From an uncultured Erysipelotrichaceae bacterium (GTDB taxonomy: Bacteria > Bacillota_I > Bacilli_A > RF39 > UBA660): a DNA stretch of 64,000 bases. Positions 1,783 through 60,765 of this stretch are shown piece by piece. The translations under genes were made by a program, and so were the position numbers. Location of the stretch: the NCBI GenBank assembly GCA_902764145.1, contig CACWUS010000001.1, positions 21,678 through 85,677 of the forward strand, written 5' to 3'. The notes beneath the pieces are model-generated. The model did no database searches. It worked only from the letters and a program-made list of their open reading frames with translations, and was not told where the DNA came from. Every line of letters begins with the position of its first letter. The first letter of the stretch is position 1.

Positions 1783-2091
1783 TTAATTTACATAAAAATC
1801 CTTAGCAGTTATTTCAGTAGATTCAATTTTAGAAACATCACTACATATATTATCAATAGCATTATTAAAATTATTACTACTATCTTCTATACCATTAATG
1901 ATATTAATACAATCGCCTGCTATATCCTCTACTAAATTTGGAATATTTTTTAAATAACCACCACTATTTAAACTAGGTATATCAAATGAATTAACTATAT
2001 TTTTGGCTTTTCTAACATTAGTAACTGCATTATTAACATTCTTAATAACATTATCTTTTACTTTAGAGGAAACATATAATACATTTGTCAT
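1783..2091 (-). CDS. Small helical protein, last gene of the T7SS substrate-like array
   Basis: 102 aa, N/I/D-rich and helical. Tightly packed with the upstream WXG-like genes. Confidence 0.5.
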   Translation of the reverse strand: MTNVLYVSSKVKDNVIKNVNNAVTNVRKAKNIVNSFDIPSLNSGGYLKNIPNLVEDIAGDCINIINGIEDSSNNFNNAIDNICSDVSKIESTEITAKDFYVN

Positions 2092-2094
2092 AAA

Positions 2095-2367
2095 CTACTT
2101 TTCAGCAGCTGATACAGATTCTATTTCAGAACCAATAGCATATAAAGTATCAACTAATTTAGTTAAAGAATTACCAAAATTAGTATACTTAACCTTATCT
2201 ACAGTTGCTTTTTCTTTATATAAACTTGCTGCCTCTCCTTCCCATCCACTAGTATTTATCACATTATCAAAGAAAGTTTCAACATTGTCATTAACAGCTT
2301 CAACACAAGTACTAAAATTACTAACTAATTCATTATACTTATTAGTATCAACTTTTAATTTACTCAC
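2095..2367 (-). CDS. WXG100-family protein
   Basis: 90 aa with a central W-E-G (TSGWEGEAASLY) between two predicted helices. Confidence 0.65.
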   Translation of the reverse strand: MSKLKVDTNKYNELVSNFSTCVEAVNDNVETFFDNVINTSGWEGEAASLYKEKATVDKVKYTNFGNSLTKLVDTLYAIGSEIESVSAAEK

Positions 2368-2710
2368 TGCCTTTTTCCCTTTCCTTTCTAATTAAATAAT
2401 CATAGTAACCAATGGATCCATCAATACTAGATATTTTGTTATTAATTTCAGGAATTATAGTATTTTGTATCTTACTAATAATACCATTAATCTTAGTTTT
2501 TTGCTTACTAATGTTATTCTTATCAATACCAGAGCCATCAATAGTAAAACTACTACTAACACCAGTATTTGCTAACTCTAAATCATCACATGGTTTACTA
2601 AGACAAGGAATAAGTGAATTATTTAAAGAAGTCTTTAAATTAACATATCTTGCCCTTTCACCATTTAATGATTCTATTTGCCTATAATAATATAATTCAT
2701 TTTCTGTCAT
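2360..2710 (-). CDS. Small coiled-coil protein in the T7SS array (possible YwqH-like chaperone; uncertain)
   Basis: AGGTGA lies 5 nt before the ATG at 2710; the track start at 2719 is a GTG inside that RBS. Overlaps the next gene by 8 nt. Confidence 0.5.
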   Translation of the reverse strand: MTENELYYYRQIESLNGERARYVNLKTSLNNSLIPCLSKPCDDLELANTGVSSSFTIDGSGIDKNNISKQKTKINGIISKIQNTIIPEINNKISSIDGSIGYYDYLIRKEREKGSE

Positions 2711-2722
2711 TATATTCACCTA

Positions 2723-3064
2723 TTAATTCATTTTATTAATATTAACTAAATCACCTTGATCAGCTGGTGCAGCTTCAACAGCAGAAACACCAATAGCTGC
2801 TTGTTGAGATTCATATGCAGCTTTAACTTCCATCAATTTTTCTTTGAATTCATCAAAGTGTCTTACAATTGAATTTATTTGTGCAGCTGTTTCATCAATA
2901 TAGCCATCTATAGTAGCTATTTGTTGTGCACCATAAACTCCATCACTATATTGAATTTCATAAGTTTTAATTCTATTTAAATAATCTTCTACAGTAGTCA
3001 TATAGCTTTCAATAGCAGCTTGCATGTTTGGTATTTCATCATACTTAATTGCCATTGTATCCAT
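2723..3064 (-). CDS. ESAT-6/WXG100-like protein lacking the Trp (VYG in place of WxG)
   Basis: 113 aa helix-turn-helix hairpin pattern (IKYDEIPNMQAAIESY ... DGVYGAQ). AAGGAGTGA RBS. C-terminus is GDLVNINKMN. Confidence 0.6.
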   Translation of the reverse strand: MDTMAIKYDEIPNMQAAIESYMTTVEDYLNRIKTYEIQYSDGVYGAQQIATIDGYIDETAAQINSIVRHFDEFKEKLMEVKAAYESQQAAIGVSAVEAAPADQGDLVNINKMN

Positions 3065-3095
3065 ACAACATCACTCCTTTCTAATATATTAATTA

Positions 3096-3428
3096 TTATC
3101 CTATTAAGTTTTGTTGGAAAGTTTCCCATTGCTCTATTATGCTTTGAGCTTCCTTGCTAACTGCTTGTCTATAATTTTCAATTTTATCTTTTACATCTTG
3201 TGCATGAGTATGAAATTTTTCTAAATAATTTTGGCAGTCAACACCACTCCATCCAGCTTGTAGTGCAGAATCAACTGATGCGTAATTCATAATAGCATCT
3301 TCAGCCTCTTGAATTACTTGATTAAAATTATCTAATGCTGTTTGAACAGCGCTTTTTGTAATACCAGAAGACCAATCTGCTCCTCCGCCTGCACCAAATC
3401 TTTGAATATTTAATTTAATAGTTGACAT
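3096..3428 (-). CDS. WXG100-like protein with an N-terminal KLNIQRFG leader
   Basis: 110 aa with W-S-G (QAGWSGVD). GGGAGGTGA RBS. N-terminus MSTIKLNIQRFGAGGG. Confidence 0.65.
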   Translation of the reverse strand: MSTIKLNIQRFGAGGGADWSSGITKSAVQTALDNFNQVIQEAEDAIMNYASVDSALQAGWSGVDCQNYLEKFHTHAQDVKDKIENYRQAVSKEAQSIIEQWETFQQNLIG

Positions 3429-3741
3429 TTACAAGTTCACCTCCCTCTTCTTTTGATATTTCACTTATTGATATACTTGATTGTTCTTGTTTGAATGATT
3501 CTAATAACTTTTTAAAATCATCTATATATGTTTGTAAATTACTTAAAAACATATCATACTGATCCTCAAATATAGTATATTTGTTTTTTATAGAATCACC
3601 TATTTCTCCTTCAACACTAGATGATATCTTAGAAATCATACTACTAGCATCATTCAAATTCTTAGATATCAAATCATAACTAGCTTGAATGTTTGAAATA
3701 GATGCGAGCAAGTCACTTTCTCTAATTGTAATATTGTCCAT
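3415..3741 (-). CDS. Small helical T7SS-associated protein (first gene of the array)
   Basis: 108 aa. AGGTGA RBS. C-terminus GGELVNVNY. Overlaps the next gene by 14 nt. Confidence 0.55.
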   Translation of the reverse strand: MDNITIRESDLLASISNIQASYDLISKNLNDASSMISKISSSVEGEIGDSIKNKYTIFEDQYDMFLSNLQTYIDDFKKLLESFKQEQSSISISEISKEEGGELVNVNY

Positions 3742-17704: not shown

Positions 17705-17990
17705 TTAATAAAATATGCTAATATTATTACTGTGTGGAGCATTATGCTAGTCAAGCATACCACCCGAAGATGGGGCTAAAAATCCATTAATTGTACAAAA
17801 AGATACTTTATATATTTTGCTTCTTTCGCCCAGACTGGGGTGAATATATAATTTTAGATTTAAGGATATTATATAATGGCATATATACAAATTCCTTTTA
17901 TCGCATCGTAGATTATGAACGTACATGACGTGAGTGAATTATTGGGATAAAAAATTGAAAAATAATTTGCAACAGCGTATAAAAGTGGAC
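17705..17990 (-). promoter_or_regulatory. Probable T-box leader of argS (extent uncertain)
   Basis: The minus strand reads TTCGGGTGGTATGC (17755-17765), matching the T-box core GGGTGGTA. Hairpins lie downstream and an aaRS gene follows. Stem I hallmark motifs were not recognised by eye. Confidence 0.45.
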
Positions 17991-18210
17991 TTTGCTTGTC
18001 TGGGAAAACCTCTAGCGTGTCTTTATTATAAAGATTGAAGTGCGGACTAAGTGGTGATCGAGTGATCACATAAGGTAACTAGTGATTTGTATTTTCAAAG
18101 AGAAATCGCCTACAGGTAACTAAGGGTAGATACAAGAGAAACTCAACTCGACCAAAGCCGTAAAATTAATTTATAATAATCCATACAATCTTTTTTTTTA
18201 GGAGAAAAAA

Positions 18211-20707: not shown

Positions 20708-20968
20708 ATGAAAGAAGACTATATTTTCAAAAATGAAAAAGAACTATATTTTACCATTGGAAAGAATATAAGATATTACAGAAAACTATATAGTTTAAAT
20801 AAAAAAGAACTCACACAAGAGTCCCTAGCTGAAATTGCAAATGTATCAACATCCTTAATAGGTAATTTAGAAAGCAAAAAAACATATCAAGGAATAAGTA
20901 TATATAATTTGTATAAAATTAGTAAAATATTAGAAATACCTATTGAATATTTTTTTGTTGATCGATAA
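20708..20968 (+). CDS. XRE-family HTH regulator (paralog A)
   Basis: LTQESLAEIANVSTSLIGNLES...LYKISKILEIPIEYFF. Confidence 0.7.
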   Translation: MKEDYIFKNEKELYFTIGKNIRYYRKLYSLNKKELTQESLAEIANVSTSLIGNLESKKTYQGISIYNLYKISKILEIPIEYFFVDR

Positions 20969-21215
20969 CAATTGATTCAAAAAATTTATCAATAGAAGTA
21001 TCTAATACTATTGAAATTTTATATAAAGTTAATAAAGCCATTCCTTCACTACCTTTAGTACTTTCAAATTTTCTAATATATTCTGGTGACTTACCAATAT
21101 CAAGTGCTAGTTGCTCTTGAGTTATACCATTTATTTTTCTATACTTGATTACGTTATAAGCAATAGTTTCAATTATATTTTCATTAAAATTGAACTCTCT
21201 TTTAAATCTTGTCAT
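20940..21215 (-). CDS. XRE-family HTH regulator (paralog B)
   Basis: ITQEQLALDIGKSPEYIRKFES...LYKISIVLDTSIDKFF. Its 3' end overlaps paralog A by 29 nt. Confidence 0.7.
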   Translation of the reverse strand: MTRFKREFNFNENIIETIAYNVIKYRKINGITQEQLALDIGKSPEYIRKFESTKGSEGMALLTLYKISIVLDTSIDKFFESIVIDQQKNIQ

Positions 21216-21317
21216 ACTACCACCTAAGAATAATTTTACATTGTTTTTAAATTAATTAATGTAATGTTATACTATACATTTTTAATTATTTATTTTATAA
21301 TTTAAATGGTGAAATAA

Positions 21318-21560
21318 ATGACTCAGAAGGAACTAAATATAATAATTGGTAAAAATATAAAAAAGTATAGAAAAATATGCAATAAAAAATTTACACAAGA
21401 ACAATTAGCAGAAGCAATCGATGTATCAGTTTCACTAATAAGCAATTTAGAAAGTGAAAAAATAAATATGGGCATAAGCATATCTAATCTTTATAAAATA
21501 TCAGTTGTATTAAACGTTCCTATTAATAAATTTTTTGAGGATAATAATTATGAAAAATAG
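21318..21560 (+). CDS. XRE-family HTH regulator (paralog C)
   Basis: FTQEQLAEAIDVSVSLISNLES...LYKISVVLNVPINKFF. Confidence 0.7.
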   Translation: MTQKELNIIIGKNIKKYRKICNKKFTQEQLAEAIDVSVSLISNLESEKINMGISISNLYKISVVLNVPINKFFEDNNYEK

Positions 21561-22068
21561 CTTAAATAACATATCTGATATTAATTCTTTTCTAAAAGAA
21601 AAAGACTTTAAAAAATTACTAAAAAAAATAGATTCAAAAAAGAAGATTAAAATAAATAATAAAATAATTCATAAAAAAAACTTATCGCACAAAGAACAAT
21701 TCCTATACAACCTAGATATGTATATAAACTTCATTAAATCAAAAGTATTTATTAATCAGTTCGAATTAAGATATATTATATATTTAACTTTATTTAATAG
21801 AAATAACAATATACTTTTTCATGATGTTTATTACTATGAAGACACAAATTATTATATAAATAAATTTATTAAAATGTTTATGTCAAATTATTTAAAAAAT
21901 TATAGATTTCTTTCAAAATATATTAATATTAAAAAAAGAAATTTTACTGAACTAATCGACATAATAAATAAAAATAAAAAAAGAACATATGTCTATTTTG
22001 AAGATATCAACATAAACAATATGAACTTTTATATTCCTTTAATATTAAATATTGAATCTAATTCATAA
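21550..22068 (+). CDS. Hypothetical K/N/Y-rich protein, translationally coupled to XRE paralog C
   Basis: GAGGA RBS. The ATG at 21550 overlaps the XRE stop by 11 nt. No recognisable domain. Confidence 0.5.
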   Translation: MKNSLNNISDINSFLKEKDFKKLLKKIDSKKKIKINNKIIHKKNLSHKEQFLYNLDMYINFIKSKVFINQFELRYIIYLTLFNRNNNILFHDVYYYEDTNYYINKFIKMFMSNYLKNYRFLSKYINIKKRNFTELIDIINKNKKRTYVYFEDININNMNFYIPLILNIESNS

Positions 22069-23134
22069 AAACATCATATATATTTTTATAACAGAAAGTT
22101 ACTCTATTCGTACCTTTCTTTTTTTCTTTAATTAAAAAACCTTGATCTACTAATTTATTTAATACCTTATTAACAGAATTAATATGTAAATTACACTCAT
22201 CAACTAAATCATGTGTAGTAAATACTATCTTTTTTAATATAACAGGATATACCTTAAATATAGTAGTACCCCCAATAGAATTCTTAAATAATTCATAATC
22301 ACTTTCATAAATTTTATTTAACTTTCTAATTCTTTTTATATTAATAGTGCATTGTTCAATAAAACATTGTAACAATAATTTGATAAATTTATTAACATCT
22401 TCCTCTATTTCACCACTTAAAGATGTAAAATATGTATTTTTTAAATTTTCCAAACTTTCAGATATAAATAACAAAGGAGGTTCCTTTTTATACATAGAAA
22501 ATTGAAGGGCAATTAATAATCTTCCTATTTTACCATTCCCAGAAACATAAGGATGAATTTTTTCAAATTGATAATGACTGATAATGGTAGAAATTAAATA
22601 TGGATCATCATTACTTTTAATATATTCAATTAACTCTTTCATTAAATCATTTACTTCTGTATACACAGGGGGAACAAATGAAACACTAGAGCCAGCTATT
22701 CCAGGTTTAAGTAAGAAATTTTGAGTCCTTCTAAATTTTCCACTTCCTTTAGTTTTACTATCCTTTTTGCAATTTAAAAATAACATCTTATTAATCTTGT
22801 TTAAAGTATCGATATTTATTTCACCTTTTGATGAATCAGAAGCACCTATTACTAATGATTGCTTAAGATTATTGAATTCTATTACTTCATTAGTTTTATT
22901 TAAATACTGTGAATGAAACATATATTCTTTGTCAATTTTACTTCCATCTAATTTAAATGAATAATAAGTATCCGAAATAAAAGCAGTTTCTAAAAAAGAT
23001 TTATAATCATACTTAAGATTTCTAAGATATCCTTTATATTCACCATATATTTCTTCTGCTTCACACAACAAATTATATAGTTCACCATTCTTATTATATT
23101 CTAATGGTAGTTTCTTAGCTTTATATGGTTCCAT
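22058..23134 (-). CDS. Fic-family protein with a C-terminal winged-helix domain and a degenerate Fic motif
   Basis: HPYVSGNGKIGR versus canonical HxFx(D/E)GNGRxxR. GGAGG RBS. Confidence 0.8.
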   Translation of the reverse strand: MEPYKAKKLPLEYNKNGELYNLLCEAEEIYGEYKGYLRNLKYDYKSFLETAFISDTYYSFKLDGSKIDKEYMFHSQYLNKTNEVIEFNNLKQSLVIGASDSSKGEINIDTLNKINKMLFLNCKKDSKTKGSGKFRRTQNFLLKPGIAGSSVSFVPPVYTEVNDLMKELIEYIKSNDDPYLISTIISHYQFEKIHPYVSGNGKIGRLLIALQFSMYKKEPPLLFISESLENLKNTYFTSLSGEIEEDVNKFIKLLLQCFIEQCTINIKRIRKLNKIYESDYELFKNSIGGTTIFKVYPVILKKIVFTTHDLVDECNLHINSVNKVLNKLVDQGFLIKEKKKGTNRVTFCYKNIYDVFMN

Positions 23135-23220: not shown

Positions 23221-23573
23221 AAAAAAAATAATTAAGTTCTGATAAAACTTAACTATCCTAGTTTAAAGAAATTAGATTACAATCGTTATAAATAATTTTT
23301 TTATTATAATATTCTAAATATTATCAGTATCTAGCGTAATCCCTTATCTTTTTGAGTTTCTTTCTCAATGATACATCATCGTTCAAGGTAGATAAGAATC
23401 TATTATTTCATATTTAAGAAATAAAATATTAACATATTTTAGCAAGTTAATACTAGAATATATTAAATAAATAGATTTTTTTCACCAAAATAATTAATAT
23501 AAATATTTTAATTTAATAAAAATTTTTTAAATTTAAACTAAACTATTATTATTTATACACTTATTATATTGAA
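23221..23573 (-). ncRNA. Candidate cis-regulatory long leader RNA, copy 1 (upstream of fic); unclassified
   Basis: Conserved core at 23311-23400. Terminator hairpin TTAAGTT-ttatcag-AACTTAA plus a T-run at 23221-23258. Paralogous to copy 2. Confidence 0.5.
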
Positions 23574-24004: not shown

Positions 24005-24677
24005 AAAAAGCAATCAGTCCTGATAAAACTTGATTGCCTTGAGTTTCCGAAAAAAAGATTATAATCATTTATATTAAAGTAGATACTTTAATATAAATAC
24101 ATTCTAAATATTATCAGTATTTAGCATAATCCCTTATCATTTTGAGTTTTACTTTCTCAACGATATATCATTTGTCCTTGGTAGATAAGATATCTATTTC
24201 TTAAATTAATAAGAATATTTATTTAATTATTGAAATATAAATATATAATTAAATATCAATAAATTAATACTAATAAATAATATATATATTTATTAGATAT
24301 AAATAATTAAGATAACTACTAATATATATAAATAATAATTTAATATTATTTGTATATAACAAAATGTAATCAAGTTAATTATTTATATGAGAATAAATAA
24401 TTAAAAATAATAATTAAATATATAAGTATAATTAATAAATTAATATTAAATATAAATATATATAATTACTACTATAACTATTTAATTTAAATAATAATAT
24501 TGAATATAAATTAATAATTAATAAATTAATATTAATTGTTAAAATATAAAAATCAATAATATTACTATAAAATAATTAAATAAAATTATAGATTTTTTCA
24601 CCAAAATAATTAATTGATGATTTATATATATAAATAATTAAATTTATAATATAAATATCCTTTAATTATCTATTGGA
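24005..24677 (-). ncRNA. Candidate cis-regulatory long leader RNA, copy 2 (upstream of the 117-aa gene); includes a ~380-nt AT-only insertion
   Basis: Conserved core at 24101-24195. Terminator hairpin CAATCA..ttatcag..TGATTG plus TTTTT at 24005-24040, ending 17 nt before the ATG. Confidence 0.5.
24205..24586. repeat. Extreme AT-only low-complexity tract
   Basis: About 380 nt with only a few percent G+C by eye. Recurring ATTAATAAATTAATATTA-type words. No ORF. Confidence 0.6.
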
Positions 24678-36539: not shown

Positions 36540-37736
36540 TTATTCTTCTATTTTTGTTCCACAATTACCACAAAATTTTCCAGTAACCATTTCATGACAA
36601 TTAGGGCACTCTTTTCCTTCTGTAGGAGCAGGTTCACTTTCTTCTATTTTTTCTTTTACTTCTTCTTTGTTAGGTTTTACTACTCCACCAAATATACTTC
36701 CCATTTCTGGTTGTTGATTTTGTGGATTATATAATCCTTCTCCATTATTTCCTTGATTAACAGCATTCATCATATTACCAGCTGCTTGTCCTGCCATATT
36801 CATTCCCATGAATCCCATCATTGCACCATTTGCATTTGATGCTGCATTTCTCATAGCATCAGCTGAAGCAGAAGCCATTAAACCAGATTGTAAGCTTTGA
36901 TTAGAGAAAATAGTAGCTTCATCAATCTTATTAACTTTAGCCATAGACTCATCAGTAAGATTAATATCTCCTATTGCAACATCTGTGATTTCTAAGCCAT
37001 AATTTTGTCTCCATGATTCATCTAAACATGTATTCATTTCATTAGAAATATCTCCATTATATAAACCAATATCTCCAAATGAAACTTTATTTTTTCTCAT
37101 AACAACAGAGATTGCTTGAGTTACTTGTTCTACAAATTTATTTTGTAATTGTGTACCAATTATTTCTTCATAAGTTACAGTATCAGCTGGATGTGCACCA
37201 ATTACATTATTAACTAGTAAAATTGGATCTACAACTCTAAATGCATATTCTCCAAAAAAAGTTACTTCCAACATTCCATATTTTTCATCTGTAATTTTTT
37301 TTGGTTGTGGTGAACCAAATTTATTACCAGTAATAGTCAATAAATTAACATAGTAAACTCTTTGATCTTTAGCAGTTTGACCACCATAAGTAAAACGTTT
37401 ACCTATTGTTTTGAAAGTATCTATGATTCCTTTTCCTAAACCACCTGTAAAAATACTTGGTTCACTACTTGTATCATAATAAAATGTACCAGCATCAGCA
37501 GTAAATTCTTTAATTTCACCATTGTCTATAATCATCATAGCCATTCCTTGTGGAACAACAATAGTACTTCCATTAGATATTACTCCTTCAGATGGATTTT
37601 TGTTTCCCTCTCCATGATTAACAATTCCTCTTTGAATAAGAACATTTTTTGCAATTGCTGGGCAATTTACAAATTCTTTAAATTGATCACCAAGAGCTGT
37701 AGTTGTAGCATTAGATAATGCTTTAATTAATCCCAT
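36540..37736 (-). CDS. YdjI-like SPFH-domain protein with a C-terminal zinc ribbon
   Basis: Overall resemblance to B. subtilis YdjI. M/N/G-rich linker, then CPNC...CGNCG. Confidence 0.75.
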   Translation of the reverse strand: MGLIKALSNATTTALGDQFKEFVNCPAIAKNVLIQRGIVNHGEGNKNPSEGVISNGSTIVVPQGMAMMIIDNGEIKEFTADAGTFYYDTSSEPSIFTGGLGKGIIDTFKTIGKRFTYGGQTAKDQRVYYVNLLTITGNKFGSPQPKKITDEKYGMLEVTFFGEYAFRVVDPILLVNNVIGAHPADTVTYEEIIGTQLQNKFVEQVTQAISVVMRKNKVSFGDIGLYNGDISNEMNTCLDESWRQNYGLEITDVAIGDINLTDESMAKVNKIDEATIFSNQSLQSGLMASASADAMRNAASNANGAMMGFMGMNMAGQAAGNMMNAVNQGNNGEGLYNPQNQQPEMGSIFGGVVKPNKEEVKEKIEESEPAPTEGKECPNCHEMVTGKFCGNCGTKIEE

Positions 37737-37825: not shown

Positions 37826-38926
37826 CTATTTTGCATTCTTATCTATTTCTATTATTATTTGATATTTATCAGGTAAATCCACTTCATGTTTTTTAACCAG
37901 TGGACTATTTATTGAATAAATAAATTCCCTAATTTCTGAAATCATTTTTGGCAAATGAGAAGAATAAATACTGTTATCTTTTATATCAATTTCTTCTTTT
38001 TTATTATCTTCTTCATTTTCCTTTATTTCTTCCATATGACTACCTAAATCAATGAAATTATTTTTATTATTATTTAAATCATTATTGATAATATTATCAT
38101 AATAACTTTCTTGTTTGTTTTGTACTTCTTTCTCTATTCTTCTTATACTGTCTTCAAATCTTACTTGAAATGGATTCATTTCTTCTCTTTGTTTTTCTAC
38201 ATCTTCATTCAAATTATCTTCTTGAATAACAAATTTTGGCTTTTTATCTTCTATATTAGATATTTCATTGTTCTCAATAAACTTTCTTATTCCTTCTGGA
38301 ATATCATCTTCTATTGAACTTTTATTTAATAATTTACTTATTTCATCTTCTGTTTGCCTAACTGTTAATTTTTCACTTATTATTCTATTTAATAATTCAA
38401 TTTGTTTTTCAGAATCATTTAATGATAACAAACTCCTAGCATGTCTTTCGGATATTTTATTATATAATAAGGCATCTTGAACTTTTTTAGGTAAATTTAA
38501 TAACCTGATTTTGTTAGCTATAGATGATTGGCTCACTCCTAATTTATTAGATATTTCATCTTGTGTGAATCCCCTATCTATTAATTTTTTAAATGATTGA
38601 GCTTCTTCAATTACTGTTAAATTTTTTCTTTGTAAATTTTCAAGTAATGCTATTTCAGCACTAGTATTGTCATCAGTATTATTAATAATTGCTGGTATAG
38701 TTTTTAATCCTGCTAAAACAGAAGCCTTGTATCTTCTTTCACCCGCAATTATTTCATATTTATCTCCAATTTGCCTTAAAACTATTGGCTGAATAATACC
38801 ATATTTTACTATAGATTCTGATAAATCATTTAGTTCTTTTTCATCAAATGCCAATCTTGGTTGAAACCTATTAGGTAAAATATCTTCTACAGAAACATTA
38901 ACAATTTTATCTTTAAACTCATTCAT
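37826..38926 (-). CDS. noc: ParB-family protein of Noc type (nucleoid occlusion protein homolog) with a long internal insertion
   Basis: GERRYKAS and ENLQRKNL boxes. HTH region GVSQSSIANKIRLLNLP..KISERHARSL resembles B. subtilis Noc rather than Spo0J. C-terminus DKYQIIIEIDKNAK is Noc-like. Located after rsmG. Confidence 0.75.
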   Translation of the reverse strand: MNEFKDKIVNVSVEDILPNRFQPRLAFDEKELNDLSESIVKYGIIQPIVLRQIGDKYEIIAGERRYKASVLAGLKTIPAIINNTDDNTSAEIALLENLQRKNLTVIEEAQSFKKLIDRGFTQDEISNKLGVSQSSIANKIRLLNLPKKVQDALLYNKISERHARSLLSLNDSEKQIELLNRIISEKLTVRQTEDEISKLLNKSSIEDDIPEGIRKFIENNEISNIEDKKPKFVIQEDNLNEDVEKQREEMNPFQVRFEDSIRRIEKEVQNKQESYYDNIINNDLNNNKNNFIDLGSHMEEIKENEEDNKKEEIDIKDNSIYSSHLPKMISEIREFIYSINSPLVKKHEVDLPDKYQIIIEIDKNAK

Positions 38927-39030: not shown

Positions 39031-39735
39031 TTATTTCATACTTTCTTTTTTTATTATTTTATATTCTCTTGGATATTTATTATCTGTTTTTTTATTTTTT
39101 TTGAAAATAAGAATTGTTCTATTTGAACCATCAATAGGAAGCTTATAATTTATCTTATTTTCTAATAAATAACCAAGAATCTTCGCTTTATTAATAGATT
39201 TTTCTAATTCTTCATCAACATTAGCTTTTAATGGAATGAATAAACCATTTAATTTTAATGATGCTACTGATAATTCTAAAATAATATCTAGTGATGATAC
39301 AGCTCTACATGTAATAATATCAAAAACCTCTTTATTATTTTTTGCATATATTTCCATTCTATTATTTATTATTTCTACATTTTTTAAACCTAATTTATTT
39401 TTAATTTCATTTAGAAATAATATTTTTTTTGAATTAGATTCTATTAAAGTTATTTTCGACGTATTAAATATTATTGCTATAACCATTCCAGGAAAGCCTG
39501 CCCCTGTTCCAAAATCACATATTTTTTTGTTGCTTAAATTGATTGCTCTAATTAAACATAATGAATCATAAAAATGTTTTAAATAAATATCTGCTTCATC
39601 AAGAATTGTAGTTAAGTTAAATTTTTTGTTCCATTCTATTAATAAATTTTTATATTTTTCTAGTTTTTCTAATTGATCACTATTTAATTCTATATTAATT
39701 TTTTTACATTCTTTTATAAAAATTTCTTTATTCAT
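39031..39735 (-). CDS. rsmG: 16S rRNA (guanine527-N7)-methyltransferase
   Basis: Contains DFGTGAGFPG. Synteny mnmG-rsmG. Confidence 0.9.
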   Translation of the reverse strand: MNKEIFIKECKKINIELNSDQLEKLEKYKNLLIEWNKKFNLTTILDEADIYLKHFYDSLCLIRAINLSNKKICDFGTGAGFPGMVIAIIFNTSKITLIESNSKKILFLNEIKNKLGLKNVEIINNRMEIYAKNNKEVFDIITCRAVSSLDIILELSVASLKLNGLFIPLKANVDEELEKSINKAKILGYLLENKINYKLPIDGSNRTILIFKKNKKTDNKYPREYKIIKKESMK

Positions 39736-45409: not shown

Positions 45410-46804
45410 ATGACAAATGATATCATTTGGGAAAAATTTTTGTCTATAATACAAAAAGAAGTATCACCAATTACTTTTAATTGTATTATTAAACAATTAA
45501 AACTATATTCATATAATAATAGTAAAATGATAATCACAACTTCAGAAAATAATGAATTACTATTAGAAAAAGTTAAACAGAATTATTCAAATTTAATAGA
45601 AAATATAATGAATGAAATCACACAAGATTCATGTGAAATACATTATTTATTAAAAAATGAAATAAATGATTCTACTAATATAATTGAAAATAATAATATA
45701 CAAACAAAGAATTTTGAAGAAACTTTAGAAAATGACTTATCAAATTATAAATATAATAGTAATTTTATATCAAAATATACATTTGATACATTTGTAGTTG
45801 GTGAATCAAATAAACTAGCTTATGGAACTGCTAAAGCGGTTGCTCAAAATCCAGGAAAATTATATAATCCCTATTTTATTTATTCAAATAGCGGACTTGG
45901 TAAAACTCACTTAATGCATGCAATTGGTAATTATATAGTTACTCATTCTGATAAAAGAGTCTTATATATAACAGCAGAACAATTTTCTAATGATTATATA
46001 TCAATAGTAAATACAAAAAATAGCAATAGCAATATTTCTTATTTAGAAGCTTTTAGAGAAAAATACAGAAATGTAGATGTATTAATGATAGATGATATAC
46101 AGTTTTTAGAAAAAAAAGAAAAATCTCAAGTTGAGTTTACTAATACTTTTAATGAATTATATTATAATGAAAAACAAATAATTATTGCATCTGATAAATC
46201 TATAGAAGATTATAAATATTTAGAAGATAGACTGAAAACTAGATTTAGATGGGGATTAACAGAATCAATTAGTCCCCCAGAATTAGAATTAAAGAAAAAT
46301 ATTATAAAGAATAAGATAATGGTTAATAATTTTGATCTTTATCTTGATGATTCTATTATTGATTATATTGCTAATAATTGTGGAAGTGATATTAGAAATA
46401 TTGAAAATTCAGTTACAAGATTAGTCGCATATAAATCTATATTTAATTTAGATGAAATAACACTAGGTATAGCAAAAGAAGCATTAAATGAATATACAGA
46501 CAAACCTATGTATAAAACAAACTCTGTTGAAAAGATAATTGATGTTGTTGCAAAATTCTATGGAATTGATAGTTCTATGATAAAAGGAAAAATGAAAAAG
46601 AAAAATATTGCTGATGCAAGAGCAATTACTATGTATTTAAGTAGAATATTAACAACTGAAAGTTTGCAGAGAATTGGTTTACTTATAGGAGGTAGAGATC
46701 ATTCAACAGTAATTTATTCTTATGAAAAAATATCAAATGAATTAAAAACAAATATTAAGTTACAAGAGGAAATAAGATTGTTAAAAAATAAAATAAGTGA
46801 ATAA
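45410..46804 (+). CDS. dnaA: Chromosomal replication initiator DnaA
   Basis: Contains GLGKTHLMHAIGN, DDIQFL and a domain IV HTH (DHSTVIYSYEKI). Confidence 0.97.
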   Translation: MTNDIIWEKFLSIIQKEVSPITFNCIIKQLKLYSYNNSKMIITTSENNELLLEKVKQNYSNLIENIMNEITQDSCEIHYLLKNEINDSTNIIENNNIQTKNFEETLENDLSNYKYNSNFISKYTFDTFVVGESNKLAYGTAKAVAQNPGKLYNPYFIYSNSGLGKTHLMHAIGNYIVTHSDKRVLYITAEQFSNDYISIVNTKNSNSNISYLEAFREKYRNVDVLMIDDIQFLEKKEKSQVEFTNTFNELYYNEKQIIIASDKSIEDYKYLEDRLKTRFRWGLTESISPPELELKKNIIKNKIMVNNFDLYLDDSIIDYIANNCGSDIRNIENSVTRLVAYKSIFNLDEITLGIAKEALNEYTDKPMYKTNSVEKIIDVVAKFYGIDSSMIKGKMKKKNIADARAITMYLSRILTTESLQRIGLLIGGRDHSTVIYSYEKISNELKTNIKLQEEIRLLKNKISE

Positions 46805-48163: not shown

Positions 48164-48625
48164 ATGGAATATGAAATAAGCTATGACACACAAGTAATAC
48201 TTCCTATTAAGGAAAATAAATCAAAAATAATTGAAGAAAATGATGAATATTATATTGATAATTCTCCTATAAATATTCTAGAACACAGTTGTGAATACTT
48301 TGGTAGTTCTTATGAAGGAAGAAAAGAAGGCACAAAGAAATTATTAGGAATAACACATAAATCTCCAATTATAGTTGAAGAAACAAGAAAAATAATATTT
48401 TTTCCAACTATGTCACCAGAAAACAAAAATTGTGTTTGGATAAATTTAGAAAAAATAGAAAAGTATTATGAAGTAGATCATAAAAAATCAGTAATAGAAT
48501 TTAAAAATGGCGATGTTTTAGAATTTGAAATATCTATAGGTTCTTTATCTAATCAAATATTAAGGGCAACAAGATTAAAATATGTATTAGAAGAAAGAAT
48601 TAACTTAAAAGAAGATAATAATTAA
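48164..48625 (+). CDS. comK: ComK-family transcription factor
   Basis: SCEYFGSSYEGRKEGT..HKSPIIV..FFPTMSP..CVWI matches B. subtilis ComK SCRFFGSSYAGRKAGT..HKPPIMV..FPTLS..CGWI. Confidence 0.8.
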   Translation: MEYEISYDTQVILPIKENKSKIIEENDEYYIDNSPINILEHSCEYFGSSYEGRKEGTKKLLGITHKSPIIVEETRKIIFFPTMSPENKNCVWINLEKIEKYYEVDHKKSVIEFKNGDVLEFEISIGSLSNQILRATRLKYVLEERINLKEDNN

Positions 48626-51746: not shown

Positions 51747-54254
51747 ATGGAAGAAGAAATTAAAGAAGAAAATACTAATTACGAAGAAAATGAATACAAC
51801 GGAACATTTCATGAAAGAGACAGTCATCAAGAAAATAATATTGTTGATGAAGTAAAGGATTCTTTTCTTGACTATTCAATGAGTGTTATTACATCAAGAG
51901 CTATACCAGATTTAAGAGATGGATTAAAACCAGTTCATAGAAGAATTCTTTGGTCAATGTATGAAGAAGGCAATACTCCGGATAAACCTCATAGAAAATC
52001 AGCAACAACTGTTGGTAATGTAATGGGTCATTATCATCCACATGGCGATAGTTCAATATATGATGCTATGGTTCGTTTAGCACAAGATTTTAATCAAAGA
52101 TACATGTTGATAGATGGTCATGGAAATTTTGGTAATATTGAAGGTGATGGTGCTGCTGCTTATCGTTATACTGAAGCAAGATTAGCCAAAATATCACTTG
52201 AATTACTAAGAGATATTAATAAAAATACAGTTGATATGGATGATAATTTTGATGTTACAAGAAAAGAGCCAAAAGTATTACCATCAAGGTTTCCAAATAT
52301 ATTAGTCAATGGTTCTATGGGAATTGCTGTTGGTATGGCAACAAATATTCCTCCACACAATTTATCTGAAGTTATAGATGGATGTGTTGCTTATATAGAT
52401 AATCCTGACATTGATACAGAAGGTTTAATGCAATATATTAAAGGCCCAGATTTTCCAACAGGTGGAATAATACTTGGAAATTCAGGAATAAAAAAAGCAT
52501 ATGATACAGGTAGAGGAACTATAACTATTAGAAGTAAAGCAGAAATTGAAGAACATAATGGGCATAATGCAATTGTATTTACTGAAGTACCTTATGGGGT
52601 TAATACAATGGAACTTAAAAATAAAGTTGCTGAGCTTGTCCACACTAAAGTAATAGAAGGAATTACTGATTATCATACTGACTTAAAAGATGGAGTAAAG
52701 ATCACAATAACTTTAAAAAAAGATGCAAATCCACAAGTGGTTTTAAATAATTTATATAAACATACTGCTTTTCAAGTAAATTATGGAATAATATTTTTAA
52801 TGTTAGATGGCTTAACACCTAGAACATTAGGATTAAAAGAAATAATAACAAAATATATTGATCATCAAAAAGAAGTAATTATAAGAAGAACACGTTTTGA
52901 TTTAGATAAAGATGAAAAAAGAGTTCATATATTAAATGGATATAAAATTGCACAAGATAATATAGATGAAGTAGTTAAGATTATTAGAGGTGCAATGGAT
53001 GATACAGATGCTAAAGAAAAATTAATGTCTAGATTTGAATTAGATGAAATTCAAGCAGATTCTATTTTAGAATTAAGACTAAGAAGATTAACAGGATTAG
53101 AAAGAGATAAAATAGAAGAAGAATTAAAAAATTTACTATTAGAAATAGAAGAATTAAAATCAATTCTAGCTTCTGAGCAAAAAGTATTGGAAATTATTAA
53201 AAAGGAAATGTTAGAAATTAAAAACAAATACGGGGATGATAGAAAAACAACAATAGACATGACAGCAATTGAATATATCGAAGATGAGGCTTTAATTCCT
53301 CAAGAAGAAGTTGTAATTACATTAACTAATAAAAATTATATTAAAAGATTACCAAAAGATACATATAAATCCCAACATAGAGGTGGAGTTGGTATTAAAG
53401 GTATTACAACAACAGATGAGGATTTTGTTGAACAATTAATATCATTAAATACACATGATTATATATTGTTTTTCTCAAATAAAGGTAAAGTTTATAGATT
53501 AAAAGGATATAAAATACCTGAATATTCAAGAGTTGGAAAAGGATTACCTATTATTAATCTATTATCACTTGAAAAAGATGAAAAAATTAATACAATGGTA
53601 AAGATTAATAATAAAAATTCAAACAAATGTTTGTTATTTTGCACTAAAAATGGTTTAGTTAAACGTACACTACTTAGCGAATTCGATAATATTAGACAGA
53701 CTGGAAAAATTGCCATTACACTAAAAGATGATGATGAATTAATATCTGTAAAATCTTGTGATGATAATACTCAAATACTAATGTGTTCTTCTGGAGGAAG
53801 AATGGTTAGATTTACTGCAAGTGAAATTAGAATAATGGGGAGAACAGCTTCAGGCGTAAGAGGTATTAATTTAAGTAATGACATTTGTATTGGATGTGAA
53901 GTTTCAGATAATAATAGTTTATTGCTTGTTGTAACTGAAAATGGATATGGTAAGAAAACATCTATTGAAGAATATAGGCAAACTAAGAGAGGAAGCAAAG
54001 GAGTTAAGACTTTAAATATTTCCGAGAAAAATGGAAAAGTCGTTGGATTCAAATCAACAAATAACAATGTTGATCTTATGATAATAACTACTCTTGGCAT
54101 AATAATAAGATTAGATGTTAATGCAATATCTGAAATGGGAAGAGTAACAAAGGGAGTAAAATTAATTAATCTTAAGGATAATAATAAAGTTGCATCAATA
54201 TCATTGGTTGAAAAAGAAATTGATGATGAATCAGATGAAAATATAGAAAATTAA
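51747..54254 (+). CDS. gyrA: DNA gyrase subunit A
   Basis: Contains DGLKPVHRR, AAAYRYTEARL and C-terminal beta-pinwheel repeats. Confidence 0.97.
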   Translation: MEEEIKEENTNYEENEYNGTFHERDSHQENNIVDEVKDSFLDYSMSVITSRAIPDLRDGLKPVHRRILWSMYEEGNTPDKPHRKSATTVGNVMGHYHPHGDSSIYDAMVRLAQDFNQRYMLIDGHGNFGNIEGDGAAAYRYTEARLAKISLELLRDINKNTVDMDDNFDVTRKEPKVLPSRFPNILVNGSMGIAVGMATNIPPHNLSEVIDGCVAYIDNPDIDTEGLMQYIKGPDFPTGGIILGNSGIKKAYDTGRGTITIRSKAEIEEHNGHNAIVFTEVPYGVNTMELKNKVAELVHTKVIEGITDYHTDLKDGVKITITLKKDANPQVVLNNLYKHTAFQVNYGIIFLMLDGLTPRTLGLKEIITKYIDHQKEVIIRRTRFDLDKDEKRVHILNGYKIAQDNIDEVVKIIRGAMDDTDAKEKLMSRFELDEIQADSILELRLRRLTGLERDKIEEELKNLLLEIEELKSILASEQKVLEIIKKEMLEIKNKYGDDRKTTIDMTAIEYIEDEALIPQEEVVITLTNKNYIKRLPKDTYKSQHRGGVGIKGITTTDEDFVEQLISLNTHDYILFFSNKGKVYRLKGYKIPEYSRVGKGLPIINLLSLEKDEKINTMVKINNKNSNKCLLFCTKNGLVKRTLLSEFDNIRQTGKIAITLKDDDELISVKSCDDNTQILMCSSGGRMVRFTASEIRIMGRTASGVRGINLSNDICIGCEVSDNNSLLLVVTENGYGKKTSIEEYRQTKRGSKGVKTLNISEKNGKVVGFKSTNNNVDLMIITTLGIIIRLDVNAISEMGRVTKGVKLINLKDNNKVASISLVEKEIDDESDENIEN

Positions 54255-54259
54255 ATATA

Positions 54260-54275
54260 TGTTCCACGTGAAACA
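54260..54275. promoter_or_regulatory. parS site (copy 1)
   Basis: TGTTCCACGTGAAACA, an exact match to the Bacillus-type parS consensus TGTTNCACGTGAAACA. Confidence 0.8.
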
Positions 54276-54284
54276 TAAAAAAAA

Positions 54285-54300
54285 TATTTCCCGGGAAATA
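54285..54300. promoter_or_regulatory. Noc-binding-site-like palindrome (may double as the gyrA terminator hairpin)
   Basis: TATTTCCCGGGAAATA contains the B. subtilis NBS core ATTTCCCGGGAAAT. It is part of the 22-bp perfect palindrome AAATATTTCCCGGGAAATATTT. Confidence 0.65.
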
Positions 54301-54313
54301 TTTTAAAGCAATA

Positions 54314-54329
54314 TGTTCCACGTGAAACA
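54314..54329. promoter_or_regulatory. parS site (copy 2)
   Basis: TGTTCCACGTGAAACA, identical to copy 1. Confidence 0.8.
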
Positions 54330-54337
54330 TAAATAAC

Positions 54338-54366
54338 TTGAAATTTAATTAATTATTGTATATAAT
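54338..54366 (+). promoter_or_regulatory. Promoter of the SRP RNA gene
   Basis: TTGAAA-17 nt-TATAAT, 6 nt upstream of the predicted RNA 5' end. Confidence 0.65.
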
Positions 54367-54372
54367 CTATTT

Positions 54373-54444
54373 GTGCAACAGATATAAATATGAACTAGGT
54401 CAGGATTGGAAAATAGCAGCCTTAAGTATTTTATCTGTGTGCAC
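54373..54444 (+). ncRNA. ffs: Small (4.5S-like) signal recognition particle RNA
   Basis: AGGTCAGGATTGGAAAATAGCAGCC matches the domain IV consensus AGGUCAGG..GGAA..AGCAGCC. The closing helix pairs GTGCAACAGAT with ATCTGTGTGCAC (one bulged G), followed by TTTTATTTT. Conserved position next to tadA-dnaX. Confidence 0.8.
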
Positions 54445-54462
54445 TTTTATTTTGAGGTAAAA

Positions 54463-54864
54463 ATGGATGCAAAAATTAAAAAATTAAAAAATATGAATAA
54501 GAAAGCAATTAAGAATGGAGATATTCCAGTTTCAGCAATGATAATTAAAAATAATAAAATTATTTCAAAATCTTACAACAAAAAATATAAAAATAACAAT
54601 CCAATTCATCATGCAGAAATACTAGCAATTATAAAAGCATGTAAAAAATTAAAGACTACAAATTTGATTGATTGCGAGTTGATAACAACATTAAAACCAT
54701 GTATTATGTGTGAATCTGTAATAGCGGAAGTGAAAATTAGGAAAGTTTATTATATATTAGAAAAAAATAAAGAAGTGAATAAAAAAATCGAATATATTAA
54801 AATAAATAAAGAAAACGATATATTTAAAAAAGAATTAAAAAAATTTTTTGAATTAAAAAGATAG
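54463..54864 (+). CDS. tadA: tRNA-specific adenosine deaminase
   Basis: Contains HAEILAI and PCIMC. GAGG RBS. The track start at 54406 (TTG) would run through the SRP RNA. Confidence 0.85.
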   Translation: MDAKIKKLKNMNKKAIKNGDIPVSAMIIKNNKIISKSYNKKYKNNNPIHHAEILAIIKACKKLKTTNLIDCELITTLKPCIMCESVIAEVKIRKVYYILEKNKEVNKKIEYIKINKENDIFKKELKKFFELKR

Positions 54865-59928: not shown

Positions 59929-60765
59929 ATGATACAAAAAAGTTATGAAAAAAACATTTATGGCAATTTATATTTAGTACCTACACCTATAGGAAATCTT
60001 GAGGACATTACGTTAAGAGCAATAAACACTTTAAAAATGGTTGACATGGTATATGCTGAAGATACTAGAGAAACAATAAATCTGTTAAAGCATTATGATA
60101 TAAATAAGAAAATAGAATCTTGTCACAAATACACTGAAATGAAACATAAAGATAAAATAATACGTTTATTAAAAGAAGGAAAAAATATAGCATATGTAAC
60201 TGATAGAGGAACACCACTAATTAGTGATCCAGGAAATGTAATAGTTGATGAGTGTATTAAAAATAATATTAATGTAATATCATTACCTGGTCCAAATGCT
60301 TTATTACCTGCTTTAAATATGTCAGGTATTAGTAATGAAAGGTTTTTGTTTTTTGGATTTCTTAATAGTAAGAAAACATTAGCAAAAAAACAATTATTAA
60401 AATTAAAAAATATAACAGTACCAATAATATTTTATGAATCACCCTATCGTCTTAAAAATACAATAGAAATTATGTATGAGATATTGGGAAGTAGAAAAGC
60501 ATCTATTATTAGAGAAATATCAAAGATACACGAAGAAATAATAAGAAGTAATTTACCTAATTTAATTAATGAATGCAACAATATAAAAGGAGAAATTGTT
60601 ATTATAGTTGCAGGAAATAATAATGATGAAGAAGAAAATATTAATTATAAAGAAAAAGTAATTGAATATGTTGAAAAGGGATATTCTAAAAGAGATGCAA
60701 TTAAAAAAATATCATTAGAATACAATATTAATAAAAATAAAATATATAATGAGGTAAAGGAGTAA
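59929..60765 (+). CDS. rsmI: 16S rRNA (cytidine1402-2'-O)-methyltransferase
   Basis: PTPIGNLEDITLRAINTLK with the tetrapyrrole-methylase fold pattern. Confidence 0.9.
   Translation: MIQKSYEKNIYGNLYLVPTPIGNLEDITLRAINTLKMVDMVYAEDTRETINLLKHYDINKKIESCHKYTEMKHKDKIIRLLKEGKNIAYVTDRGTPLISDPGNVIVDECIKNNINVISLPGPNALLPALNMSGISNERFLFFGFLNSKKTLAKKQLLKLKNITVPIIFYESPYRLKNTIEIMYEILGSRKASIIREISKIHEEIIRSNLPNLINECNNIKGEIVIIVAGNNNDEEENINYKEKVIEYVEKGYSKRDAIKKISLEYNINKNKIYNEVKE

Follow-up and report, generated by a model that had tools for sequence, protein, structure and literature searches.

Directly downstream of gyrA, in the origin region of an uncultured organism with a genome of 24% GC, two parS sites enclose a Noc-binding site (NBS). 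We propose, at a probability of roughly 0.55, that this triplet is the minimal version of a lineage-wide, origin-proximal composite centromere, which would serve two paralogous CTP clamps of the ParB family as a dual loading zone. The triplet is the smallest form of a conserved origin-proximal element, which reaches 8–11 units where it is drawn out into arrays. The components are each known. The novelty lies in their combination, in the invariant position of the composite and its multiplication into arrays, in the phase preference between its two types of sites and in the truncated Noc with which it is paired. Full-text literature searches on parS, NBS, Noc and ParB recovered no description of interleaved parS/NBS clusters, and those on Noc yielded no natural Noc proteins described as being without the membrane helix. 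Similarly, spo0J, soj and noc go unmentioned in published surveys of the gene content of RF39, RFN20 and ML615J-28.

The triplet and its setting near the origin

The window (the whole stretch of 64,000 nucleotides that was analysed) displays the triplet in an intergenic gap between gyrA and dnaX, on the same side of the origin as dnaA:

45410..46804, + strand: dnaA, from ORF order and the gene calls in L001
51747..54254, + strand: gyrA, with Pfam DNA_topoisoIV and six DNA_gyraseA_C repeats; stop codon at 54252-54254
54259-54276: 18-bp A-parS-T form of parS-1, conserved in the lineage
54260..54275, unstranded: parS-1, TGTTCCACGTGAAACA, an exact match that begins 5 nt past the gyrA stop codon
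54285..54300, unstranded: Noc-binding site (NBS), TATTTCCCGGGAAATA, within a perfect 24-bp palindrome at 54281-54304
54314..54329, unstranded: parS-2, TGTTCCACGTGAAACA, the same 16-mer as parS-1
54338..54366, + strand: SRP RNA gene promoter-like site of the sigma-70 type, TTGAAA-17-TATAAT, 11/12 matches
54370..54450, + strand: ffs, the small SRP RNA gene, directly 3′ of the cluster (Rfam RF00169, 54.4 bits)
54463..54864, + strand: tadA (tRNA adenosine deaminase), from Pfam and the gene call in L190
54893..56524, + strand: dnaX, which borders the gap on its downstream side; begins at 54908 in the public gene call

Both parS sites are exact matches to the 16-bp consensus TGTTNCACGTGAAACA and form, together with their flanks, a 23-bp direct repeat (54257-54279 and 54311-54333); the NBS is an exact 16-mer and its palindrome agrees with the consensus ATTTCCCGGGAAAT. 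Exact matching thus bears out the two parS 16-mers and the one NBS, all within 70 bp, that the first-pass annotation had reported, and its assignment of these sites to the Bacillus-type parS and Noc-site categories agrees with the published consensus sequences and with 22-bp in vitro oligos (PMC8429893). The perfect palindrome around the NBS, which it had given as 22 bp, is in fact 24 bp long. No parS or NBS match with up to three mismatches exists in the 64-kb window besides the three sites. Accordingly, what had been a by-eye impression, that no other CACGTG- or CCCGGG-centered site is present, is correct by a whole-window count: CACGTG occurs twice and CCCGGG once, every one of them within the three sites. 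The further suggestion that such sites were very unlikely to arise by chance also stands, with base composition predicting ~8e-6 exact matches for parS and ~2.5e-5 for the NBS (~1e-5 per motif), and with shuffled windows, which contain a mean of 0.23 parS matches, never reaching the observed four (0 of 100). All three motifs are retained in a second, independent assembly of the same species as the window, where the spacer between parS-1 and the NBS is 2 nt shorter.

The gene gyrA forms the upstream border of a conserved gyrA-dnaX gap, with the synteny being retained in 106 of 120 listed species loci. The sole recurrent ORF of this gap is tadA, which is present in 75 of 76 loci. The promoter-like site of the SRP RNA gene starts 9 bp downstream of parS-2, and the 5′ end of ffs (TGTGCAACA) recurs beside the clusters of other species; a candidate third conserved motif of the clusters was rejected on account of the enriched sequence being this very ffs 5′ end. 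We also rejected the presence of a reader gene inside the long gyrA-dnaX gaps, where the ORFs other than tadA are translations of the repeats. These arrays hence call for caution in annotation, as they yield spurious repeat ORFs (MFHVKH...).

The gene order on one side of the origin is rpmH-rnpA-yidC-jag-mnmE-mnmG-rsmG and on the other dnaA-dnaN-comK-recF-gyrB-gyrA, and the cumulative GC skew has its minimum at 44–46 kb of the window. From these we infer that oriC lies in the rpmH-dnaA gap just upstream of dnaA, about 9 kb from the cluster. The same distance of ~9 kb in the first-pass annotation fits both the skew minimum near 45 kb and the position of dnaA at 45410. As DnaA boxes show no enrichment across the window overall, we place oriC by gene order and GC skew; within the clusters, DnaA-box 9-mers are only ~4-fold enriched.

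Distribution of the composite locus across the lineage

When 185k species, each represented by a single genome, were scanned for NBS cores with a parS no more than 30 bp away, at least 120 loci were recovered. All 120 of the listed loci, which form a biased sample as they were chosen for a P-N pair (where P is parS and N is NBS), are found in the gyrA-dnaX gap, with their GyrA proteins being 46–87% identical to that of the window. They belong to low-GC uncultured MAGs labelled Bacilli, Tenericutes or Erysipelotrichaceae, though these record labels are unreliable, with some bins carrying Muribaculaceae or Bacteroides; going by such titles, the lineage would be one of RF39/RFN20-like Bacilli. 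These MAGs come from the guts of humans, ruminants, rabbits, chickens and mice. As IMG/VR yielded no match to the P-N pattern, a phage or plasmid origin of the cluster was rejected.

A second sample consisted of metagenome loci picked solely by the similarity of the GyrA C-terminal domain, independently of the motifs. Among its 45 ingroup members in which 300 nt or more follow gyrA, both site types are present within 1.5 kb after gyrA in 43, the exceptions being one locus with the NBS only and one with neither site. None of the five outgroup loci (GyrA 51–56% identical, GC 30–49%) have sites after gyrA. Thus, the question raised in the first-pass annotation, as to whether the motifs are conserved at this position in related genomes, is answered in the affirmative by both the pattern-selected and the GyrA-selected loci.

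The sites are also strongly concentrated in the gap. Across 108 loci with both genes, the gyrA-dnaX gaps (147 kb in total) contain 532 parS and 234 NBS, as compared to two parS and 47 NBS in 708 kb of flanks outside the gap, which amounts to a 24-fold higher density of the NBS in the gap than in the flanks. As many as 30 of these 47 flanking NBS represent one conserved position inside dnaX. With a one-mismatch threshold, the gaps contain a median of four and a maximum of nine parS sites.

Architectures, site classes and spacing

The clusters are highly variable in their architecture, and a tight coupling of P and N is not universal. P-N-P triplets resembling that of the window are seen in loci L008, L011, L023, L029 and L086, long runs of parS with a single NBS in L031, L095 and L110, and in one subgroup the NBS lies 205 bp from the first parS. 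Tandem arrays comprise 8 units of 64 bp in L016, 9 units of 75 bp in L070, 84-bp units in L041, 76-bp units in L101 and 11 units in L053. Overall, units of 64, 75, 76, 82 and 84 bp have been amplified in different species, with both sites being present in each. The first site after gyrA is parS, rather than the NBS, in 49 of 76 loci.

In a scan of site classes across the 120 listed loci, all base combinations were allowed at both discriminating positions of every half-site. This yielded 518 parS-class, 335 NBS-class and ~15 other sites, with no mixed sites combining a parS half with an NBS half among the ~870 detected. Two discrete classes without mixed half-sites fit two homodimeric readers. 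The lineage parS logo shows 1.8–2.0 bits over 18 bp (A-TGTTNCACGTGNAACA-T) and that of the NBS displays conserved A/T-rich flanks; both lineage forms agree with the in vitro oligos of PMC8429893. About 180 of 517 parS-class sites deviate at position 5 and/or position 12 from the perfect palindrome: 107 of these are TGTTCCACGTGAAACA, which is asymmetric with a broken dyad, and 73 are TGTTCCACGTGGAACA. The spacers are unrelated between species in both sequence and length, while the motifs remain exact, and the presence of exact motifs beside freely changing spacers indicates that the motifs are under selection, as judged from sequence conservation. Consistent with this, the divergence per site in four arrays is 0.07 in the motifs versus 0.16 in the spacers, with one array showing the opposite.

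The centre-to-centre distances between adjacent P and N sites peak near 26, 36, 45, 56, 67 and 79 bp. When one genome per species is considered, the Rayleigh statistic has its peak at 10.5 bp (n=276, nR2=14.2), as against nR2 values of at most 3.2 at the control periods of 7–8 and 13–14 bp. Collapsing the spacers shared by descent leaves 206 classes with nR2=7.55 (Monte-Carlo p ~6e-4, phase ~0.4 turn) and R ~0.19, with phylogenetic non-independence being removed only in part by this procedure. P-P distances show no periodicity. The helical-phase preference between P and N is thus real but weak, and it would be compatible with two bulky dimers seated at neighboring sites, each on a roughly opposite helix face to the other.

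A truncated Noc-type protein and the predicted parS reader

Only one ParB-family gene is found in ~80 kb around oriC, 16 kb from the cluster, and it codes for a Noc-type protein with the following immediate neighbors:

36540..37736, − strand: SPFH/Band_7_1 protein, from Pfam, whose C-terminal tail is Cys-rich (zinc-ribbon-like); downstream of the Noc-type gene
37826..38926, − strand: Noc-type ParB-family CTPase of 366 aa, with Pfam ParB_N and HTH_ParB
39031..39735, − strand: rsmG (gidB), after which the Noc-type gene comes next; synteny in L001-L006, L127 and L128

The ParB_N domain of this protein is recovered by Pfam with an e-value of 1e-32. Sequence comparisons place the protein nearer to Noc than to ParB/Spo0J: the tblastn identity is 46% to Noc versus 42% to Spo0J, and comparison with PDB entries gives 202 bits for Noc (7NFU) versus 158 bits for Spo0J (6SDK). 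Its best NCBIfam family is TIGR04285 (nucleoid occlusion protein), which aligns over model positions 1–217 of 255 with 267.1 bits, below the 315-bit cutoff.

According to Jalal et al. 2020 (PMC7383237), parS and the NBS differ at two positions per half-site, the reading of which falls to residues 173 and 201. In the NBS, A1 is recognised by Q173 and C6 by R201, with a single Lys at either 179 or 184 being enough, while the parS-specific variants always retain R173 (PMC7383237). Residues 173/179/184/201 of the window protein are Q-K-N-R. All 120 listed homologues possess Q173 and R201, with 118 of them showing Q-K-(N/S/T)-R or Q-R-N-R and the remaining two QKGR and QKYR. Under the rule of PMC7383237, which derives from the Caulobacter ParB and B. 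subtilis Noc scaffolds and not from this protein, Q173/R201 along with Lys 179 predict a specificity for the NBS and not for parS, making the Noc-type protein the predicted reader of the NBS that would not read parS. The QKNR, QKSR and QRNR variants are absent from two supplementary files of Jalal et al. 2020. The CTP-binding/hydrolysis motifs GERR and ENLQR show at least 95% conservation among the 120 listed homologues, and their conservation renders CTP-dependent clamping by the Noc-type protein plausible.

At its N-terminus, the protein has 14–22 residues ahead of PNRFQPR in the listed homologues (14–19 in 119 of 120) versus 39 in B. subtilis Noc, and in the alignment to Geobacillus Noc 7NFU the first aligned Noc residue is 25. 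The start codon of the Noc-type ORF is the first to follow a stop, and hence no upstream extension is possible. By these alignments, the N-terminal amphipathic membrane-targeting helix is absent from every listed homologue. Conversely, an acidic insertion of ~150 aa is present before the C-terminal dimerisation strand, with a conserved (I/L)NPFQ-helix-YYD module. The SPFH gene is found beside the Noc-type gene in three diverged genomes, including those with 55–64% identical Noc-type proteins, and the SPFH protein is a possible partner of the Noc-type protein.

Tblastn searches of the window with soj/spo0J probes and Noc found only the Noc-type gene, and hmmsearch and phmmer --max against all six-frame ORFs of the window recovered no second ParB and no ParA/Soj. 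Weak matches from the ParB/ParA searches were rejected as being three XRE-type HTH proteins (20708-21560) and a tetrapyrrole-methylase (rsmI-like) gene (59929-60765). Nor does soj-spo0J adjoin the Noc-type gene on contigs whose Noc-type protein is 100%, 64% or ~55% identical; ~16 kb of extra flank, reached via pth and a left-end gene, contains no ParB or ParA, and the gyrA-dnaX gaps of other species contain no canonical ParB/Soj. Taken with the exact parS conserved over 18 bp, the specificity rule and the lack of mixed half-sites lead us to predict that a dedicated canonical ParB for parS, of the R173/G201 type, is encoded elsewhere in the genome.

Relationship to known parS, Noc and iterated systems

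In B. subtilis, origin-proximal parS sites are bound by Spo0J (ParB), which loads SMC. The parS sites of the lineage share with these the 16-bp consensus TGTTNCACGTGAAACA and the location near the origin (PMC7333895, PMC7053999), and the 18-bp core of the lineage agrees with the in vitro parS oligo (PMC8429893). However, the Bacillus parS sites are singly dispersed over hundreds of kb and are often intragenic, whereas those of the lineage are gathered in one intergenic gap and interleaved with the NBS. Further, unlike in Bacillus, neither spo0J nor soj was found in the ~80 kb near oriC.

Iterated centromeres are known from sopC of plasmid F, and clustered chromosomal parS sites are found near parAB in other phyla. 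Like the arrays of the F sopC type, those of the lineage are made up of tandem palindromic ParB-type units whose copy number varies among relatives. In contrast to the one site class and one protein of the former, the lineage units combine two site classes and, by our prediction, two paralogues, and the array is chromosomal and away from the reader genes.

In Bacillus, noc follows rsmG in the canonical block rsmG-noc-soj-spo0J. The Noc-type gene of the lineage likewise comes after rsmG, but soj-spo0J does not follow it. The Noc/NBS system itself was reportedly described by Wu et al. in 2009. The lineage has the same NBS consensus as B. subtilis and S. aureus Noc (PMC4331003, PMC8429893, PMC5540599), and its paralogue resembles Noc in its Q173/K179/R201 and CTP-binding motifs. 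NBS copies of the lineage also occur outside the cluster, as in the 47 of the flanks. However, while Bacillus Noc requires its N-terminal amphipathic membrane helix for nucleoid occlusion (PMC8429893), the lineage protein is without this helix, falls below the NCBIfam Noc cutoff and possesses the long acidic NPFQ insertion. Moreover, the Bacillus NBS are described as scattered, whereas those of the lineage are concentrated beside parS, sometimes in arrays. The natural sites of the lineage fall into precisely the two classes of the specificity switch in PMC7383237, a study that treats the ParB and Noc systems separately and includes no natural DNA with alternating sites. Spo0J and Noc reportedly affect Z-ring placement in B. 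subtilis jointly (Hajduk et al. 2019, PMC6852036). This offers a precedent for joint action of the paralogues on division and on the chromosome near the origin, though the interaction is a genetic one, and the abstract of that article describes no binding sites that the two proteins share or that lie next to each other.

Weighing the alternative explanations

The main rival of a dual loading zone holds that there are two independent readers without any interplay between ParB and the Noc-type protein and that the juxtaposition of their sites is incidental, with the gap being the only large non-coding stretch near oriC, in a reduced genome of 24% GC, that tolerates GC-cored 16-bp palindromes, and with tandem duplication co-amplifying its contents. 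Such a view accommodates the spacing, which ranges from 16 to over 100 bp, the variable order, in which either site type may lead, and the species with long parS runs and one NBS or with the NBS at a distance of 205 bp. It is also in keeping with the occurrence of the NBS elsewhere, e.g., inside dnaX, as would be expected of scattered Noc sites, and with the regular arrays being diverged tandem repeats, whose 1:1 ratio is explicable by duplication alone. Nevertheless, it leaves unexplained a 10.5-bp periodicity that is seen in the P-N but not in the P-P spacing; it also sits poorly with the amplification of differently sized units that each include both sites, the 24-fold enrichment of the NBS in the gap and the presence of both types in 43 of 45 unbiased loci. 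We hence regard incidental juxtaposition as rather unlikely, though as deserving serious consideration. The first-pass annotation had alternatively suggested that one protein might read both sites; on this view, Spo0J/Soj would have been lost and the Noc-type protein, as the only ParB-family protein, would bind both parS and the NBS as the centromere-binding protein. This notion draws on the single ParB-family gene around oriC, the shrinkage of the rsmG-noc-soj-spo0J block to rsmG-noc-like in three diverged genomes, a loss of the membrane helix suggestive of a changed function, the presence of N or S instead of K at position 184, and the dual-specificity variants in the published scan (82 of 362 strong NBS binders; PMC7383237). 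It is disfavoured by the invariant Q173 and R201 of the listed homologues, given that the published parS-specific variants always have R173, by the ~870 sites with no mixed half-sites and hardly any intermediates, which a relaxed reader should tolerate, and by the 18-bp conservation of parS, as would be expected of a dedicated reader. Accordingly, we deem it quite improbable.

Another suggestion of the first-pass annotation, that the NBS palindrome is the gyrA terminator, belongs with the broader idea that the palindromes function as RNA or DNA structures, i.e., as a terminator, a processing hairpin or a cruciform. The element does sit straight after the gyrA stop codon, and its 91-nt RNA folds as one long hairpin with a parS-1:parS-2 stem and the NBS at its tip (-23.6 kcal/mol, z=-5.5), but a long hairpin of this kind is expected from any pair of near-palindromic repeats. 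There is no U-tract past the stem and no terminator-like site was called in 54100-54600; the NBS hairpin taken alone is weak at -6.3 kcal/mol, as it has just a single G-C pair beyond the loop, and the run of U belongs to the stem. The 107 asymmetric parS sites break the dyad at positions that ParB tolerates, a terminator would have no place inside the coding sequence of dnaX, where an NBS is found, nor in arrays that reach 11 units, and parS, not the NBS, most often comes first after gyrA. Together with the exact agreement with two known protein-binding consensus sequences, these observations make a structural role exceedingly improbable and speak against the terminator. Finally, there might be no canonical ParB, with the Noc-type protein serving both classes, either alone or with a non-ParB partner, or the paralogous clamps might engage in physical cross-talk on the composite units, such as heterotypic loading, mutual roadblocking or co-condensation; we consider this pair of variants unlikely, and under either of them the parS+NBS unit would be a single functional centromere module rather than two chance neighbors.

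A proposed dual loading zone for two paralogous clamps

We favor the composite centromere as a dual loading zone, in which the NBS would be read by the Noc-type protein (37826-38926) and parS by a separate, predicted canonical ParB. The dimers of the two might nucleate adjacently with a preference for roughly opposite helix faces, and both would then close as clamps and spread over a shared few hundred to few thousand bp beside oriC. The loading of two paralogous CTP clamps on one DNA segment is rendered plausible by the Noc-type paralogue being encoded just 16 kb away. Such a scheme starts from the observed sites, their position and conservation, the two site classes, the spacing periodicity and the residues and truncation of the Noc-type protein; a distinct binder for each site, their simultaneous occupancy, the loading of clamps and a functional coupling between them would follow if it is right.

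The loss of the membrane-targeting helix makes tethering of the Bacillus type improbable, and the Noc-type protein would probably act without such tethering of the DNA to the membrane. It might more likely mark or organise the origin region, via its conserved linker module and/or its SPFH neighbor.

Implications

ParB and Noc are the textbook example of paralogous CTP-switch clamps, and four residues, along with two bases in each half-site, account for the divergence of their specificities. Hitherto, each has been treated as a system of its own, with its own sites. In the present clusters, the two site types lie 16–60 bp apart across well over 100 species, with a helical-phase preference, and are at times co-amplified. 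These clusters thus offer a natural substrate for asking if two different ParB-family clamps can load, slide and condense on shared DNA, whether ParB and Noc-type clamps block or aid one another, and what role a Noc takes on after the loss of its membrane anchor. If our proposal holds, the cluster would define the centromere of a large, uncultured branch of Bacilli with reduced genomes that is related to the Mycoplasmatales.

NBS copies and DNA elements around the parS/NBS clusters

Noc-binding sites (NBSs) also occur outside the clusters. In 30 loci a copy lies inside the dnaX coding sequence at a conserved position, some 1020-1175 nt into the gene (L008 3792; L011 4702; L086 3685; L009 3555; and 26 other loci), and the window carries no such dnaX-internal copy. 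A human-gut subgroup (L163-L188) has an additional NBS in the recF-gyrB gap. Within the parS/NBS clusters, DnaA-box 9-mers (TTATCCACA) are about 4-fold enriched relative to the flanks in the cluster regions of 12 species loci; there are none in the window's parS-NBS-parS triplet. Just past the triplet lies a promoter-like site for the SRP RNA gene, ffs:

54338-54366, +: SRP RNA promoter-like site, TTGAAA-17-TATAAT

This site starts 9 bp past parS-2, so that ffs transcription could be affected by a nucleoprotein complex of ParB or Noc at the triplet. The 18-bp parS ATGTTTCACGTGAAACAT reads in translation as MFHVKH, and therefore the tandem arrays of relatives give rise to spurious repeat-containing ORFs (L016, L041 and L009), which gene callers may annotate.

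Genomic context and genome labels

The window holds a ComK-family gene between dnaN and recF:

48164-48625, +: ComK-family gene (Pfam PF06338, E = 6.5e-48)

Matches to comK at the same position were found in 27 of the 120 species loci listed, as well as in L001 and L127, and this placement is conserved across the lineage. Structured RNAs are also present, with an OLE RNA and two PGK RNA motifs occurring in a gut or rumen organism of 24% GC:

17718-18200, +: OLE (ornate large extremophilic) RNA gene (218.6 bits)
23314-23403 and 24104-24196, -: two PGK RNA motifs

The left part of the window encodes:

3-1484 (+) and 1783-3741: FtsK/SpoIIIE-family ATPase and ORF run at the window's left end (in L192, 9324-16179)
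20708-21560: three adjacent small XRE-type HTH genes
22058-23134, -: 358-aa ORF adjoining the HTH genes

The ATPase, of 1532 aa, is accompanied by a run of ~100-aa ORFs, and together they may constitute a module for type VII-like secretion or for DNA transfer. The XRE-type HTH genes gave weak matches to the ParB profile, which we rejected as false. At a flank position roughly corresponding to that of the 358-aa ORF, the relative L127 has a Fic-domain gene, noted here as a lead only.

Several locus-bearing species-representative MAGs (L010, L011, L014, L017, L029, L030 and L035) are titled Muribaculaceae, Bacteroides helcogenes or Mycoplasma. Yet their gyrA/gyrB share 55-91% identity with those of the window, at a GC content of 25-37%, and mislabelling or contamination of the bins is the probable explanation.

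The Noc-type protein and its neighbor

The product of the Noc-type gene at 37826-38926 on the minus strand has an otherwise variable acidic insertion that contains a conserved module (residues ~245-285), in which (I/L)NPFQ is followed by a helix, FxDxIxxIEE, and then YYDxII. This NPFQ module was found in 109 of the 120 Noc-type homologues listed. In the window, L127 and L128, the Noc-type gene is each time followed by an SPFH/Band_7_1 gene:

36540-37736, -: SPFH/Band_7_1 gene (L127, 11174-12364; L128, 11330-12487)

Its product has a Cys-rich, zinc-ribbon-like C-terminal tail. We speculate that this SPFH/Band_7_1 protein may take the place of the membrane helix that the Noc-type protein has lost.
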